The notes under the pieces: model-generated
What the model was told of the DNA's origin: nothing
Seen by the model: only the letters and a program-made list of their open reading frames with translations
Database searches by the model: none
Translations under genes and position numbers: made by a program
NCBI GenBank assembly: GCA_029564765.1
Contig: JAKQPK010000013.1
Coordinates: forward strand, 125,753-189,752
Direction: 5' to 3'
Length of the DNA stretch: 64,000 bases
From: Candidatus Omnitrophota bacterium
Lineage (GTDB): Bacteria; Omnitrophota; Gorgyraeia; Zapsychrales; Aceulaceae
Shown here: piece by piece, positions 9,700 through 64,000 of the stretch
Layout: each line of letters opens with the position of its first letter
Numbering within the stretch: the first letter of the stretch is position 1

Positions 9700-12600
9700 C
9701 TAGAAGTATTTTGTGTAGAACAAGCGGATAATGTGTTGCGTATCCACTGTTGGCGTTGAACTGCCGATATAGGGAGTGCCAGTAGCGTAGCCCGTGTAGA
9801 TCGATGGCCCGACACCGTAAGAAGCAGTGATCTTGCTTTCGTCCCTTAACAGATATTGTGTTTCAAAGAAAAAATTGTGATGGCTCTGAAAATCAATTTC
9901 CCCTCTGTTGTTGCCTAAAGAATCTAGATCAAGCAATTTAGTTAGACTGTTCCATCGGCTCCACGTGTATTTTGTGTACATTTGAAGATTTGCTGTTGGC
10001 ATGTAGCTAACAGCCAATCCGACATGGTTCATGTTGTCATCAATAGGCCCTGCAAATTCATTGGGATTGCGGGTGTAGTCCAGATAAATATTCCATTTGT
10101 CGTTGGGCCTGAAATCAAGTCCTGTGCGGAAGATATTGTGGTATTCGTACGGTGGTAGCGAGAAAAAACCTTGACTATAAAGGAAATTGTAGTCGCTGCG
10201 GTAGATCCTTCCATAAGAACTATTTGTGATCGTGCTTGTGTCATTTAATATGCCGCGTGGGAAGTTATCTGCAGCGACAGTAAAATCATTTGTACGTTCC
10301 CAGATACCGCTCCATGCAACCCAATCTGTGAGCCAGTATTTTAAGCCTAAAGATGTCGTATACAGATTGGCATCTTCATTGTCAGGGATAGCGGCATTGG
10401 CCATTTGACCACCGTCAAGACGTGTCATGTATGGATCAAACCCTCCCGTCGTGCGCGGAACATGATGGGCTAGCAAAAGCATTTTTGTTTCAAATCGCGA
10501 ATTTGGCTGCCAACCCCATTCTGTGCGAGCAACTGTTTCAACATATTTATTCGTGCTGGCTTGATGAACATTGCGGATATCTGCCAGACCTTTTAATTTT
10601 GCATCCCAGAATGAAAGATCTGTCCGCCAATTTGCGACATAGCGGTCATAGTCGATACCGTTACCGATGCGGAAAGCGTTAATATCATCCGAAGAGATCG
10701 TTTGAAAGCTAACGGGATCCCGGAAGGTCAGATGGCGCCCCCAGAATTCATCATCACGCGTTTCTAGGTATGTTGAGAGGCTGGATTGAAATCCTTTGTC
10801 CATACGTGAAAGACGAAGGCGTGTTTTATAAAAAGTAGATTGACCGTCTTCTGGCTTGATCAGGAAATAATCCTGATCAGCGCCTTCAAGATAAGAGGAC
10901 GTTTTCATTAATTGTAGATCATAGGCAGATCCTCGTTGCTGAGAATCGTAAAAATCATTGGTTAGATCTTGCTGTAGGTAGGAGAAAGCGTATTGAGCGG
11001 AAACTTTTGAGCTAGGGCTTATCATGAGGCCTGAATCAACACTAGTAACGATATTATAAGCATCTAAATCTTGATTGATAAATCCAAGATGGGCGTTATC
11101 TGTGATGCCGACATAGAACTGCTCAGAGAAGCTTTGTTTTGCGCGGACACTGGTCGCTAAAGCATCAAAGACATCATAGTCTTGCCAGAGCGTTTTTGGT
11201 GAAGCGACCGTTGCAAGGATCTCTGTATTTTCTTTGCTAAAATTTGCCGAAAAGCCGCGCAACGCTGTTAAGCGATTTCCTTCACTGTCGCGTGTTGCAA
11301 AAGCTAGGTCGTCATTCCATTCGCCTTTTGTAAAATCAACAGGGATAGCGCCGGCATTGACATGTCCTGGCTTCCAGTTCGCCAGCCAAGGGCTCTCTTC
11401 CCACCAGGTTCTGTTGTTGGAAAGGCGCAAAGGATCGTCTGAGGACAACGCCTTATCTTCAAGACCGAAGGGGAAGACTTGAAGCTTGATTGTATCGTTG
11501 GGCTCATAGTCTACCCACAACTCGCGTACAGGCTGAAACCACATGTTAAGTTTTGTATCAGGTAAGAGAAGCTTGTTCCCGAATTTTGTATTCAAGGATG
11601 TGCTGGCAACATGACCATTGACCACTTTTAGCTCGGGGATGGACATAAGGTCGCCAACGTACAGAGTGTCGGCATTCAGGCCCATGGTGTAGGCACTGTT
11701 GCCTGCGTATAGGATCTGTACGTCCGCATAATCTGTCCATGTTCCCAGTGCGCCACTATCACGCAATGTCATCTTTTTTGATTTTCCAACATAGCTCCAG
11801 GGGTCAAGGGCAATGTTCGTGTGAAACGAAAAAGGATTGCCAATAGGCTCGATATCAACATCAAATTTCATTTGGCTGTAAATGGCAGGGTCGTAGGTGT
11901 TGATGCGCTGGTTCAGCTGATCCCCGGAGAGAAGGCGATAATTCTTTTCATTGAGGTCAAAGTTCGCGCGTTTCCAGATAAACTCGCCACCCCCGGATGT
12001 TTCAAAGCCAAAGCCTGCGCGTACTTTACCGTGGACCATGACCTCTTCAGGCTTGGTTTCCTGATACTCTTTTTGCTTAGAAGAAAACGATCGATCATCA
12101 ACAGATTTCTGAGGAGCGATGTCTTCATCGCCGAAGGCTTCAAGCATTTTTGCTTCAGAGACAGTCTCAGCATTGAGCGCGGAAGCAAGGGTCTGACGAA
12201 CTGTCCGAGCAGGAGGATGGCTAGTGACCGCCTGCTGGCCTTTTGTATGCTGAGCGTATTCTTGCTCCAGCTCTTTGATCGCGTGAAATTTGTTGAGTTC
12301 GTCGTTAATAGCTTTGTCGCGGTTTTCAGCATATGATACTGAGGATCGCGCGTTTTCTATGGATTGTCGGCAGAGAGGAAGGTATTTGAGGGCATCAGGA
12401 TTGCCAGGTTCTCTGTTCAAGGCCGCTTCAAATTTCTTTGCGGCTTCAACATATTGTCCTTGGCCGTATAAAAAAAGACCCATTTCAGCATCGATATTGC
12501 TAGCTGTTGCTATGAAGGGAAACATGGAAAAAAGAACGAAAACAAAAAACCCTAACGAATAAATCGTTACCGACTTTATAGAGCGGTTCTTTTGGCTCAA
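9700..12600 (-). CDS. large outer-membrane protein with an N-terminal TPR-like region and a C-terminal aromatic-rich predicted beta-barrel
   Basis: It has a signal peptide and a TPR-like 'YGQGQYVEAAKKFEAALNREPGNPDALKYL'. About 700 aa follow with alternating aromatic/hydrophilic beta-strand character, ending in 'LFYTKYF', the C-terminal aromatic signature of an OM beta-barrel. It is transcribed divergently from the ABC sugar operon. Confidence 0.55.
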   Translation of the reverse strand: MSQKNRSIKSVTIYSLGFFVFVLFSMFPFIATASNIDAEMGLFLYGQGQYVEAAKKFEAALNREPGNPDALKYLPLCRQSIENARSSVSYAENRDKAINDELNKFHAIKELEQEYAQHTKGQQAVTSHPPARTVRQTLASALNAETVSEAKMLEAFGDEDIAPQKSVDDRSFSSKQKEYQETKPEEVMVHGKVRAGFGFETSGGGEFIWKRANFDLNEKNYRLLSGDQLNQRINTYDPAIYSQMKFDVDIEPIGNPFSFHTNIALDPWSYVGKSKKMTLRDSGALGTWTDYADVQILYAGNSAYTMGLNADTLYVGDLMSIPELKVVNGHVASTSLNTKFGNKLLLPDTKLNMWFQPVRELWVDYEPNDTIKLQVFPFGLEDKALSSDDPLRLSNNRTWWEESPWLANWKPGHVNAGAIPVDFTKGEWNDDLAFATRDSEGNRLTALRGFSANFSKENTEILATVASPKTLWQDYDVFDALATSVRAKQSFSEQFYVGITDNAHLGFINQDLDAYNIVTSVDSGLMISPSSKVSAQYAFSYLQQDLTNDFYDSQQRGSAYDLQLMKTSSYLEGADQDYFLIKPEDGQSTFYKTRLRLSRMDKGFQSSLSTYLETRDDEFWGRHLTFRDPVSFQTISSDDINAFRIGNGIDYDRYVANWRTDLSFWDAKLKGLADIRNVHQASTNKYVETVARTEWGWQPNSRFETKMLLLAHHVPRTTGGFDPYMTRLDGGQMANAAIPDNEDANLYTTSLGLKYWLTDWVAWSGIWERTNDFTVAADNFPRGILNDTSTITNSSYGRIYRSDYNFLYSQGFFSLPPYEYHNIFRTGLDFRPNDKWNIYLDYTRNPNEFAGPIDDNMNHVGLAVSYMPTANLQMYTKYTWSRWNSLTKLLDLDSLGNNRGEIDFQSHHNFFFETQYLLRDESKITASYGVGPSIYTGYATGTPYIGSSTPTVDTQHIIRLFYTKYF

Positions 12601-62568: not shown

Positions 62569-62596
62569 TTGACAAGTTAAGTAACTTTGGTACAAT
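62569..62596 (+). promoter_or_regulatory. strong sigma70-type promoter (TTGACA, 16 nt spacer, TACAAT) for tRNA-Phe
   Basis: -35 at 62569-62574 and -10 at 62591-62596. The tRNA starts 33 nt downstream of the -10. Confidence 0.55.
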
Positions 62597-62628
62597 GGGT
62601 ACTTTAATAACGGATCTGTATCGTGATT

Positions 62629-62701
62629 GCCGAGGTAGCTCAGTTGGTAGAGCGAAGGCCTGAAAAGCCTTGCGTCCCCAGTTCAATTCTGGGCCTCGGC
62701 A
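62629..62701 (+). tRNA. tRNA-Phe (anticodon GAA)
   Basis: Manual cloverleaf: 7-bp acceptor GCCGAGG/CCTCGGC, D-arm GCTC-AGTTGGTAG-AGC, anticodon stem AAGGC/GCCTT with loop CTGAAAA, T-arm CCCAG-TTCAATT-CTGGG. The CCA end is not encoded. Confidence 0.85.
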
Positions 62702-62917
62702 TTTAATTTCCTTAGTGCGCGATCAGGCGAGATTAAAAGCCGTGCCATCGACCTTGGATAAAAGCTGAGGAAAGACGGCTCGGCACTTTTTCTTTAATGA
62801 AGGGTTTAGGGAGAAAAGCGCCGTGCAGTTTACCATAATTTAGGCTTGGGGAAACAGCTCGGCACTTTTTATTTTTGGTATTTTTCTTTTAAAAGTGATC
62901 AAAAAAAAGGGGATAAC

Positions 62918-63376
62918 ATGATCAAGCGTATGGGTCGATCGTTGGTCGGATGTGGAATCATGCTGCTATGCTCGCTCTGCGCTTTCGCGCAAAACGATGT
63001 GTTCGAAGACCTGCGCGGCCATTGGATCGTTGATATGGAAAAAACATTGGAATTGGTCAAGACCAGTCCGAAATACAGGCCAGAGGAAGAAGAGCGCATG
63101 CCCCAGATGATCAGGGCCATCATGGAGCGCATGTCTATCGAGGTCCAGGACAATAAGATCCTTTATTATCGAGGGATGTCAAAGGCAGAATCCGCAATGG
63201 TAACACCTTTTGAGGTGGACTCTGTCGACGGGAATGCGGTTCGATTAAGATGTGTAGATCCTTCCGGCCAGGATGTTTTTCTGACGTTGACATTGTTAAG
63301 CCCTGGACAGATGAATTTTAAGTCAAGCCAAACGAATGATTTTGATTATTATATCTGGAAAAAGGCGGAAGAATAA
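62918..63376 (+). CDS. hypothetical secreted protein/lipoprotein
   Basis: The ATG at 62918 is preceded by a purine-rich 'AAAAAAGGGGATAAC'. Signal peptide 'LVGCGIMLLCSLCAFA'. The earlier Met at 62846 is less plausible. Confidence 0.45.
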   Translation: MIKRMGRSLVGCGIMLLCSLCAFAQNDVFEDLRGHWIVDMEKTLELVKTSPKYRPEEEERMPQMIRAIMERMSIEVQDNKILYYRGMSKAESAMVTPFEVDSVDGNAVRLRCVDPSGQDVFLTLTLLSPGQMNFKSSQTNDFDYYIWKKAEE

Positions 63377-63407
63377 CGGCTTGTGCTAAGAGATTGAAAG
63401 GTAATTC

Positions 63408-63760
63408 GCTGGCGCCCCGAATTCTTCTGGAAAGAAAATAAGGAAATTCGGGACTGGCAAGCTTTTCAGAATTAATTGCGTGAATTGCTGGCGTGCCGAC
63501 TTTCTGAAGAAAAAGTGGAAGTACTTTTGCTGGCGCCCCGCACTTTTCTGGGAAAAATTTAGTAGTCGTGCGGGACTTGCAAATCTTTCTAGGCAAAAGA
63601 TTTTTGTAAATTTGCTGGCGTAGCTCAGTTGGCACCGACTTTTCCGAAAAAGATTTAGAAGGAAGTCGGCGCGCCAACTACTTCTCTGAAAAAAGAATTT
63701 AGGAAGAGTTGGCGTAGAGCAGCGCTTAAATAGCTTATACCGTAATTAGTCTGTAGTGGG
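63408..63760 (+). repeat. array of about five degenerate repeat units, each a tRNA-Thr 5' fragment ('GCTGGCG...') followed by a hairpin with a 'TTCTGR-AAAG' motif
   Basis: Units start at 63408, 63487, 63529, 63614 and about 63709. Unit 4 reproduces the first 19 nt of tRNA-Thr (GCTGGCGTAGCTCAGTTGG). Unit 5 is an internally deleted copy (GGCGTAG/AGAGCAGCGC). Each unit holds an 7-8 bp hairpin, e.g. CCCGAATT/AATTCGGG, CCCGCAC/GTGCGGG, CCGACTT/AAGTCGG. Confidence 0.6.
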
Positions 63761-63767
63761 TTATCAC

Positions 63768-63840
63768 GCTGGCGTAGCTCAGTTGGTAGAGCAGCGCATT
63801 CGTAATGCGCGGGTCGGGGGTTCGATTCCTCTCGCCAGCT
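63768..63840 (+). tRNA. tRNA-Thr (anticodon CGT)
   Basis: Manual cloverleaf: acceptor GCTGGCG/CGCCAGC, D-arm GCTC-AGTTGGTAG-AGC, anticodon stem GCGCA/TGCGC with loop TTCGTAA, T-arm GGGGG-TTCGATT-CCTCT (two G-U pairs), discriminator T. Confidence 0.8.
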
Positions 63841-64000
63841 TAATTTGCGCTTAGGGTTGACAACGGTAAGTGTCGGGGGTCATCGTCTTTTCTAGCTGAA
63901 AGATTAGGATGAAGACGATGCGTCAGTTTCCGCCCGAAAAGAACTTGCGGAAAAACTGACGTCTCCCCGCTTCTTCTGGGTTTAAAGAGGAAGGATAGCG

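Follow-up and report, generated by a model that had tools for sequence, protein, structure and literature searches.

How does a tRNA gene come to be surrounded by an array of short pieces of its own sequence, interspersed with hairpins? This question is raised by the 3' end of a 64,000-nt stretch of DNA from Candidatus Omnitrophota (GCA_029564765.1, contig JAKQPK010000013.1, positions 125,753-189,752 of the forward strand), which we call the window and to which all coordinates refer, unless an L-number (L001, L007 and so on) indicates one of the public contigs or comparison loci. The original prediction, derived from the letters of the window, had described units upstream of a tRNA-Thr gene and had proposed two origins: scars of repeated integration or excision together with partial tRNA duplication, or a family of structured RNAs or protein-binding sites. 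The analysis presented here leans, with some reserve, to the view that the array belongs to a Phe-Thr tRNA operon as its spacer, leader and trailer, that local duplication, deletion and inverted duplication have shaped it, and that its hairpins are kept at the RNA level.

ARAGORN and Rfam called only two tRNA genes in the window, tRNA-Phe(GAA) and tRNA-Thr(CGU), both on the + strand; no other sequence of the window reached the threshold of an Rfam family. A complete tRNA pseudogene was detected neither by ARAGORN nor by the Rfam tRNA model (E ≤ 10), which found just the two intact genes; the units of the array are fragments. Those upstream of tRNA-Thr and the gene itself are:

63408-63486, + strand: unit 1, with a GCTGGCG box (63408-63414), an 8-bp hairpin CCCGAATT/AATTCGGG (63416-63452) and a tail starting with ACTGGCAAGC
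63487-63528, + strand: unit 2, with the box GCTGGCGT (tRNA positions 1-8) and a degenerate hairpin ACTTTC/GGAAGT (63499-63522)
63529-63613, + strand: unit 3, with a GCTGGCG box, a 7-bp hairpin CCCGCAC/GTGCGGG (63537-63574) and the tail ACTTGCAA
63614-63669, + strand: unit 4, with a perfect copy of tRNA-Thr positions 1-19 (63614-63632) and the hairpin CCGACTT/AAGTCGG (63635-63669)
63672-63767, + strand: unit 5, with the hairpin CGCCAACT/AGTTGGCG (63672-63714), a deleted tRNA copy (63708-63725) and a 42-nt tail
63768-63840, + strand: intact tRNA-Thr(CGU), called by ARAGORN and Rfam

The five units are arranged head-to-tail in the orientation of tRNA-Thr and differ irregularly in length. On the + strand the heptamer GCTGGCG, which is identical to the first 7 nt of tRNA-Thr, occurs at 63408, 63487, 63529, 63614, and 63768; according to its rate in the rest of the window, 0.045 instead of five copies were expected in these 361 bp. 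This number bears out the claim that the units start with the 5' sequence of the tRNA. The copies cover positions 1-7, 1-8, 1-19, and 3-10 plus 19-30, and are 7, 8, 19, and 18 nt long, which supports a partial duplication of the tRNA. The perfect 19-nt copy of unit 4, which breaks off in the D-loop, and the internally deleted copy of unit 5 had both been recognized correctly: the latter reads GtTGGCGTAG^AGCAGCGC and has lost 12 nt between two TAG repeats. The arms of the unit 5 hairpin correspond to the 3' acceptor strand of the tRNA with its discriminator and to the 5' acceptor strand (CGCCAaCT/AGtTGGCG). Unit 1 possesses a second box, CUGGC, able to pair with GCUGG via two G.U pairs, and unit 3 another hairpin (AAATCTT/AAGATTT, 63581-63603). 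In unit 2 the hairpin comprises only 6 bp including one G.U pair; it is related to that of unit 4 and is decaying.

The start-to-start distances of the units are 79, 42, 85, about 94, and about 60 bp; the spacing is irregular as predicted, although its values had to be corrected. That the array is not a CRISPR array was also right: the shared box has only 7 nt, spacings vary between 42 and 94 bp, and repeat families are 63-81% identical. No CRISPR repeat family matches within the array, and the region's sole match (E = 7.3) is on the opposite strand, immediately upstream of the array. A gene for a 152-aa protein (62918-63376) between the two tRNA genes allowed us to collect further examples of the locus. 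The protein occurs on twelve public contigs, six of which were retrieved for comparison; in all six, which come from independent NCBI, JGI, ENA, and Logan assemblies, the array sequence is identical as far as each contig extends. The array is therefore not an assembly artefact.

Downstream of tRNA-Thr the array continues beyond the window, as had been supposed from its abrupt end. For the extension we used L001 (a contig of 285 kb in GCA_035358335.1; adding 52917 to an L001 coordinate gives the window coordinate), on which the array ends about 100-150 bp past the window and ordinary genes follow. The downstream features are:

63872-63880, + strand: GTCGGGGGT, copied from tRNA-Thr positions 46-54, which comprise the variable loop, the T-stem's 5' strand and the first base of the T-loop
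63881-63920, + strand: hairpin D1, CATCGTCTT/AAGACGATG, 9 bp
63921-63961, + strand: hairpin D2, CGTCAGTTT/AAACTGACG, 9 bp, plus an inner stem TTTCCGC/GCGGAAA
63965-64000, + strand: hairpin D3, CCGCTTCTTCT...AGGAAGGATAGCG, interrupted by the window end
L001 ~11092-11124: hairpin D4, beyond the window
L001 11138-11150: GATTCCTCTCGCC, a copy of tRNA-Thr positions 57-69, the second part of the split 3' copy

The two downstream hairpins reported originally, D1 and D2, are present, but their coordinates were shifted; the first does not extend from 63873 to 63915. Taken together, these features form one downstream unit on the strand of tRNA-Thr, in which a 3' partial copy is split in the T-loop: positions 46-54 are followed by about 175 nt of hairpins and then by positions 57-69. 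The CTCTCGC strand of GATTCCTCTCGCC is paired with GCGAGAG 16 nt downstream (L001 11143-11172), and the next gene, which encodes a PMT_2/TPR protein, starts at L001 11180 or 11240.

Partial copies also accompany the second tRNA gene:

62628-62702, + strand: tRNA-Phe(GAA), first gene of the tRNA operon, called by ARAGORN and Rfam
62735-62785, + strand: decayed 3' half-copy 1 of tRNA-Phe, AAAAGCC ... CTCGGCA (positions 35-41 and 67-73), with the hairpin GCCGTGCC.../...GGCTCGGC
62778-62825, + strand: hairpin CACTTTTTCT...AGAAAAGCG, whose 5' arm begins in the copied tRNA-Phe 3' end
62813-62864, + strand: decayed 3' half-copy 2 of tRNA-Phe, GAAAAGC ... CTCGGCA, folding as GCCGTGCAGTTT[..ATTTAGG..]AAACAGCTCGGC

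The half-copies are colinear with the tRNA, i.e. positions 34-41 and then 67-73 are found twice (four direct 7-mers versus 0.87 expected, P = 0.01), and each constitutes a hairpin with an outer stem resembling the acceptor stem of tRNA-Phe. L007 and L009 lack an 84-bp segment which contains half-copy 1 and has the direct repeat CTCGGCA on both sides. In L030, a mere 163 nt without any protein gene separate tRNA-Phe from tRNA-Thr; for this reason, we consider the array to be the spacer of a Phe-Thr tRNA operon. The sole canonical promoter of the region (TTGACA-16-TACAAT, ~62569-62596) is located just 5' of tRNA-Phe, and by analogy the array would be transcribed on the + strand together with both tRNAs. 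Within the array, no sigma-70-like promoter was found, and neither promoter-like nor terminator-like sites delimit separate units. Two related ideas were dropped: a promoter in each unit, as on hand inspection the tails show -35-like TTGCAA or CTGGCA motifs and no conserved -10 region, and a role of the hairpins as terminators, as T-runs are absent.

tRNA genes are classical integration sites, and Williams is said to have named the anticodon loop and the T-loop in 2002 as known sublocations of the crossover. The array could thus consist of scars left by elements which inserted repeatedly in tRNA-Thr and tRNA-Phe and were later deleted, the hairpins being their remnants. In agreement with this explanation, the partial copies adjoin an intact gene, and 3' copies begin in the anticodon loop (tRNA-Phe 34-35) or in the T-loop (tRNA-Thr 54-57). 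Fragments of tRNA genes arising from integration or CRISPR are documented (PMC9897764), and some viral contigs possess no more of a tRNA-Thr than the 3' ~45 nt, whose final 27 nt are the same. The half-copies of tRNA-Phe would fit the contiguous 3' segment expected of an attachment (att) site, yet just 33 nt separate them. However, no integrase, transposase, phage gene or other mobile-element gene exists within 10 kb on either side of the array, and the integrase that was to be looked for beyond the window is likewise missing from this distance; the 10 kb on both sides are filled with housekeeping genes (SecA, Lnt, LpxL-like, PMT_2/TPR, MFS, MscS, MatE, FtsH). Moreover, most copies are 5' fragments located upstream, which are not made by the usual integration that regenerates the 3' end, and they comprise only 7-19 nt. 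Integration would have left a contiguous 3' copy, like the ~45 nt of the viral contigs, and not one split into 46-54, hairpins, and 57-69; units of 40-95 bp would require a nearly total deletion of the element in each event. Finally, the tyrT locus of Escherichia coli displays an equal layout in the form of regular 178-bp tandem repeats, with no element involved. In view of these findings, integration scars are quite unlikely, and this part of the original prediction is not supported.

The predicted hairpin in each unit was assessed via the number of perfect inverted repeats (stem ≥ 7 bp, loop 8-32 nt), which was compared with dinucleotide shuffles. The 364 bp of the upstream array contain 7 hairpins versus 0.8±1.0 in shuffles, none of 500 shuffles reaching 7. 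The excess is thus strong, although with its degenerate 6-bp stem unit 2 does not conform. In the 257 bp 3' of tRNA-Thr, 4 hairpins compare with 0.44 expected (P = 0.002), and the interval 63,000-64,000 possesses 10, versus about 2 per kb elsewhere. Overall, perfect hairpins of 7-9 bp are about 9-fold over-represented. A loop-side motif, CTTTTC, is enriched as well (5 versus 0.6±0.7 expected).

Fourteen hairpins were aligned with MAFFT on the basis of sequence only. The consensus, CGCCGACTTTTCC...GGAAAGTCGGCG (also given as CGCCGACT...AGTCGGCG), corresponds in its outer 8 bp to the acceptor stem of tRNA-Thr plus discriminator (CGCCAGCT/AGCTGGCG) with one swapped pair. Arms which are plainly acceptor-derived (CGCCAaC/GtTGGCG) occur in unit 5 and in D2 of L007, L030, and L055; in L009, GCTGGCG is directly followed by CGCCAACT. 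These arms imply that the founding hairpin was a junction of the 3' acceptor strand, a spacer and the 5' acceptor strand. Local pairing of decoy strands is seen in several places: GCUGG/CUGGC, UGCUGGC/GUUGGCA, CGCCAAC/GUUGGCG, and CTCTCGC/GCGAGAG. The alternative that the arms are copies of the tRNA's own T-stem (GTCGGGG) fits some loci and was discarded as a general rule, because L034 and L051 have YCCCGA stems and lack that T-stem.

Covariation within the 14 hairpins is pronounced. In the 9-bp helix, 80.6% of the cells are paired versus 36-56% with slid partners, a percentage that is biased because the sequences were picked for being hairpins; the covariation is free of this bias. Six of the nine stem pairs have changed on both sides, and 20 cells with double changes compare with 7.3±2.1 in shuffles (0/500 reach 20). 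Orthologous hairpins allow the changes to be followed from locus to locus. The stem of D1 is unchanged in L007 and L030, while its loop differs, and D1 of L055 shows three compensatory pair changes; the D2 orthologues of L007, L030, and L055 differ by compensatory and G.U changes. Pair 7 of U3 is C-G in the window, U.G in L009, and U-A in L055; in D2 orthologues, pair 3 appears as U-A, C-G, and U.G, and pair 6 as G-C, G.U, and A-U. Hence, three G.U and zero A.C intermediates occur among the orthologous stems. As these compensatory changes pass through G.U on the strand of the tRNA, they indicate that the hairpins are constrained as RNA; the intermediates, although few (n = 3), point to the RNA of the + strand.

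The second original proposal, a family of structured RNAs or protein-binding sites, is touched by these results in both directions. In its strict form it regards each unit as a small RNA gene of its own, or the array as a protein sponge or set of binding sites with many hairpins (CsrB/RsmZ-like, operators), the 5' sequence of the tRNA being borrowed. The many hairpins with similar purine-rich loops and covarying stems agree with this, as does the fact that the E. coli counterpart gives rise to a stable RNA, RttR; a compensatory change at the RNA level is what remains of the proposal. On the other hand, the GGA motif is not enriched (15 versus 12.1±2.7 in shuffles, P = 0.19), which together with the missing Rfam match speaks against a CsrA sponge with exposed GGA loops. 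Rfam families do not match the array at the gathering threshold or even at E ≤ 10, the significant matches in the region being the two tRNAs only. Separate units are not defined by promoter-like or terminator-like sites, loops of orthologues vary more than stems (D1), and the number and order of units shift between genomes with 91% identity. Within the 164 kb searched, the elements are not dispersed but belong to the spacer of a tRNA operon. Autonomous RNA genes or a sponge are quite improbable.

This shift of modules was observed directly: their order changes between lineages. L007, which like L011 belongs to GCA_964486675.1, is 91.2% identical to the window across 9.8 kb upstream of the array. 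The window has the order U1, U2, U3, tRNA 1-19 with hairpin H4, unit 5, tRNA. L007 begins with the unit 5 module (GCTGGCa, the CGCCAACT hairpin, GtTGGCGTAG^AGCAGC, and tail), which is followed by U1, U2, U3, and the tRNA; it contains neither the 19-nt copy nor H4. In L009, the unit 5 module and U3 are accompanied by a new unit and by a U1-like hairpin whose stem is different, and L030 represents a further combination of modules. In L007, L009, and L030, the unit 5 module is situated at the opposite end of the array, and in relatives unit 3 is found directly 5' of the intact tRNA-Thr. Modules have therefore been reordered, gained and lost, as is to be expected from partial duplication. To judge from these sequences, the order of the window could be derived from an L007-like order in two steps: a tandem duplication with its right end in the D-loop of the tRNA would have created the 19-nt copy, and alternate copies would then have been lost. 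The duplication mechanism as such we infer from these arrangements.

The general layout reaches further than the modules. In the more distant genus Aceula (L010 and L012), whose PMT_2 neighbour is 42-48% identical, tRNA-Phe, units, tRNA-Thr, and downstream hairpin repeats (three in L012, two in L010) follow each other as in the window. The more distant Omnitrophota L016 and L017 have a canonical promoter directly 5' of tRNA-Thr and no array. In the unit directly 5' of tRNA-Thr, L010 and L012 differ by the same C-to-T change in both boxes around the hairpin (GCTGGCG/ACTGGCA versus GtTGGCG/AtTGGCA). Both changes retain G.U pairing of a putative box-box helix; homogenization of direct repeats could equally account for the paired change.

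In order to find similar arrangements elsewhere, metagenome contigs were scanned for copies of GCTGGCG with the first 24 nt of this tRNA-Thr 60-90 nt downstream. The scan yielded 45 loci, some of them probably by chance; at least 12 of the 45 have unambiguous partial tRNA-Thr copies with 10-27 nt of further identity past the box and subsequent hairpins, and there are tandem arrays of six or more units. L022 (Ga0308414_1000810) contains at least six tandem units of about 78 bp, each consisting of tRNA positions 1-27, the hairpin TCCCGACAAGTCGGGA, positions 36-47, and leader sequence. Hairpins also reside within copied loops. In L049, the D-loop holds two of them. Downstream 3' copies occur in L038, L057, and L055, and those of L038 and L055 have a hairpin in the T-loop. 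The 5' copies of the metagenomic loci stop at tRNA positions 7-8, 12-14, 17-20, and 26-28, and the 3' copies set in at 34-36, 46-47, 53-58, and 64-65. These end-points are unpaired or junction positions of the cloverleaf, a suggestive pattern. L031, a locus with tRNA-Thr(UGU) and a nearly identical T-arm, has a TTTACA-17-TATATT promoter about 45 nt 5' of a box-hairpin-box element; the position of the promoter places the element in the 5' leader.

Direct repeats flanking hairpins (GCTGGCG...hairpin...ACTGGCR) in the window, L031, L043, and L050 raise the possibility that miniature hairpin elements of a MITE (miniature inverted-repeat transposable element), REP (repetitive extragenic palindromic) or RPE (Rickettsia palindromic element) type have entered single-stranded loops or GCTGGC sites of tRNA gene copies, the GCTGGCG/ACTGGCA boxes being target-site duplications. 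The hairpins in the D-loop, anticodon loop, and T-loop of pseudo-copies on several metagenomic contigs would fit, as would the 84-bp indel 3' of tRNA-Phe with its 7-bp direct repeat. The GCUGGC box is a quasi-palindrome, however, so that the direct repeats may equally well be an RNA helix, and the arms resemble the acceptor strands of the tRNA itself. Stems, which would be the terminal inverted repeats, differ at one locus while loops are more alike; in families recognized by a transposase the opposite is true, and no transposase was found nearby (10 kb on either side). A covariance model, R1, was built from the 14 hairpins and used to search 164 kb of sequence from Omnitrophota, to which the window contributes 64 kb. 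All matches with E < 0.1 lie in the flanks of tRNA-Phe or tRNA-Thr, among them the hairpin at 62778-62825 (E = 0.016), which was not part of the training set; the best match elsewhere has E = 0.27. Accordingly, the search for these hairpins at other sites, which had been suggested as a check, returned tRNA flanks only in these 164 kb, with zero copies away from them at E < 0.1. The families named above share with the array the short, clustered, imperfect palindromes, as do BIMEs (bacterial interspersed mosaic elements), but they consist of tens to hundreds of dispersed copies with conserved stems, whereas here two tRNA genes only are concerned and stems differ. On the basis of the 164 kb covered, a mobile hairpin family is unlikely.

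The origin of the array which we favour would comprise the following steps. Repeated local tandem duplications with one breakpoint inside the tRNA gene, at unpaired positions of the cloverleaf, would leave 5' copies upstream and 3' copies downstream of a single intact gene; internal deletions and short inverted (fold-back) duplications would follow. In the founding hairpin, about 25 nt of A/T-rich spacer would separate the 3' acceptor strand with the discriminator from the 5' acceptor strand; the duplicated descendants of this hairpin would have diverged. Each hairpin would lock a decoy acceptor or T-stem strand in a local helix and thus prevent mispairing with the real pre-tRNA. The hairpins might also delimit processing and release hairpin-containing by-product RNAs, as in the case of RttR from the E. 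coli tyrT transcript. Several local pairings of this kind are visible; the sequestration of decoy strands and the role in processing are presumed.

Several points weigh against this origin. Tandem duplication alone explains neither hairpins located exactly inside the D-loops and T-loops of copies nor the recurrence of YCCCG...CGGGA stems in several metagenomic contigs. Co-transcription is deduced from strand, promoter position, and analogy. In the 9-bp core helix of the 14 paralogues, 7 G.U compare with 9 A.C pairs; G.U is no commoner than A.C, so that the RNA-strand signal comes from the three orthologous intermediates only. The excess of predicted folding energy upstream is seen on both strands (z -3.2 and -4.2), so that palindromes may also act at the DNA level; downstream it is not significant (z -0.8 and -1.2). 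Moreover, not all hairpins are maintained: unit 2 and the second copy of D1 (L055b, L011) are decaying without compensation.

The same data speak for neutral duplication debris, in which hairpins would have no role and would be palindromic owing to fold-back repair and quasi-palindrome correction of the DNA. Besides the folding excess on both strands, the about equal G.U and A.C counts of the paralogues, and the decaying copies, the rapid turnover among close relatives is what debris would show; in yeast, fold-back templated inverted insertions at breaks are documented (bioRxiv 10.1101/2024.03.07.583931). Debris does not account for orthologous stems that go through G.U and not through A.C intermediates, nor for the architecture of box, hairpin, box, tail, and tRNA, which persists to Aceula and is also present in the tRNA-Thr(UGU) leader of L031. 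We consider this explanation unlikely, although it is a live rival of the tRNA operon reading.

The persistence of this architecture leads to another, doubtful but somewhat better candidate. The sequence of box, hairpin, box, and tail (GCUGGCG-Y-CCC...GGG-A-CUGGC, about 30 nt, tRNA) and the split T-arm copies could constitute a conserved functional leader/trailer RNA system of tRNA-Thr in Omnitrophota and, in analogous form, in many lineages. Decoy acceptor strand, CUGGC box, and real 5' acceptor strand would then form mutually exclusive helices, which might steer co-transcriptional folding and processing by RNase P or yield regulatory RNAs similar to RttR. If true, this system would offer a general function for the unexplained repeats of E. 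coli tyrT.

As a control, we analysed the 178-bp repeats of E. coli K-12 tyrT/tyrV (L068, NC_000913.3, 1286900-1287330). Each unit contains, in this order, AAGGTTCGA (tRNA-Tyr 59-67, 9 nt), an insert of 67 nt that is rich in hairpins, and the final 19 nt of the tRNA (67-85); about 65 nt further on follows GGGGAAGGAT, an exact 10-nt complement of part of the copied 3' end. The region is annotated with the small RNA RttR and the peptide gene tpr, and Bosl and Kersten reportedly found in 1991 that the RNA of the tyrT repeats is processed into a stable RNA. The order of split T-arm copy, hairpins, 3'-end copy, and complement is the same in our locus (GTCGGGGGT, hairpins, GATTCCTCTCGCC, CTCTCGC/GCGAGAG). 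In both cases, units carry terminal nucleotides of the neighbouring tRNA, directly oriented, head-to-tail and on the same strand, and are placed in tandem behind and between the tRNA genes within the tRNA transcription unit, as far as transcription may be presumed here. In contrast to the E. coli repeats, which have a regular length of 178 bp, are about 95% alike, and occur on the 3' side only, the window units vary irregularly between 42 and 95 bp and have diverged strongly; 5' copies form an additional array upstream, and an open reading frame (ORF) for a tpr-like peptide is absent. The stable RNA of E. coli is said to be a processed product, whereas for the array of the window such processing is presumed. 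It may thus be regarded as an irregular, two-sided, and fast-rearranging variant of tyrT-type repeats. In the literature searched, we found no reading of the E. coli repeats as split in the T-loop and no description of arrays like the one studied here; only PMC9897764 proved relevant.

Two other known systems share single traits. As in the tandem duplication/random loss of animal mitochondria, the order of modules differs in the manner expected when an entire array is duplicated and alternate copies are then lost, and partial tRNA pseudogenes mark the junctions; here, however, we deal with a bacterial chromosome, with units far below the size of a gene, and with hairpins at every junction. The split tRNAs of Nanoarchaeum and permuted tRNAs are reminiscent of the halves in L034 (Ga0214473_10011309, ~9900-10130 oriented), which have complementary extensions of 14 nt and bracket an intact tRNA-Thr(CGU). 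The 5' half of L034 comprises positions 1-27 with a D-loop hairpin and ends in TCCCGATGCCGCC, and the 3' half comprises positions 36-72 and is preceded by GGGTGGCATCGGGA; with a duplex z of -2.75 the extensions resemble a tRNA-like shell around the tRNA. A nested shell of this kind was rejected as a general principle: complementarity of the flanks is not significant in the window (z = -0.9) and weakly so in L043 and L055. With an intact conventional gene, no trans-splicing is needed.

Partial copies next to tRNA genes commonly pass for traces of integrated elements and help to set the limits of genomic islands. This locus, its relatives and the metagenomic loci point to a second, element-free source of such copies, namely local duplication and deletion whose breakpoints fall in cloverleaf loops; in our case they are accompanied throughout by compensatorily evolving hairpins, in a layout that matches the E. 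coli tyrT repeats. If the hairpins protect the folding of the pre-tRNA or yield small RNAs, they would represent a general, overlooked feature of bacterial tRNA operons. If they do neither, the locus is an example of the rapid turnover of tRNA flanks and a reason for caution in the prediction of att sites and islands.

Beyond the array, L001 encodes a PMT_2/TPR protein, an MFS transporter, a formyltransferase, MscS, YjbQ, MatE, and FtsH. The 152-aa ORF between the two tRNA genes encodes a secreted or lipoprotein-like protein and evolves far faster than its surroundings: between L001 and L007, nucleotide identity is 67.8% versus 91.2%, and amino-acid identity is 52%. It is interrupted by stop codons in Aceula L010 and L012 and missing from L030. 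Among 5.8 billion proteins there are three homologues, and the precomputed table lists no Pfam match; a scan of genome contigs with this protein gave no match. The argument that the array (95-98% identity) is conserved beyond this neighbour (52% at the amino-acid level) was abandoned: as the flanks are 91% identical, the 152-aa gene is simply an outlier.

Among the metagenomic loci, L022, L024, L032, and L038 are AT-rich contigs with two to six or more near-identical tandem units 5' of tRNA-Thr(UGU); each unit comprises tRNA positions 1-27, the hairpin TCCCGAC-AA-GTCGGGA in place of positions 28-35, positions 36-47, and leader sequence. The viral contigs (L063-L067 from IMG/VR, n = 5) contain only the 3' ~45 nt of tRNA-Thr(UGU), contiguous from the anticodon stem onwards; their last 27 tRNA nucleotides are those of the window tRNA-Thr, and ARAGORN detected no complete tRNA in four of the five. 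These are probably attP or attR sites of phages integrating at the anticodon-stem region of tRNA-Thr in another, GC-richer host. A search of viral contigs for the 5'-box pattern returned none. A tRNA-Tyr gene on L033 (Ga0102851_10030010) is followed at a distance of 163 nt by a 21-nt copy of its 3' end, and shorter pieces of the T-arm lie between the two; the layout resembles E. coli tyrT. Finally, the independent Logan contigs L004, L006, and L009 all end at the same base in the anticodon loop of tRNA-Thr (...GCGCATTCGTA). This common stop suggests a branch of the assembly graph in the anticodon loop; the samples may hold another sequence which shares tRNA positions 1-38 and then diverges, i.e. 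a further partial copy or a strain variant.

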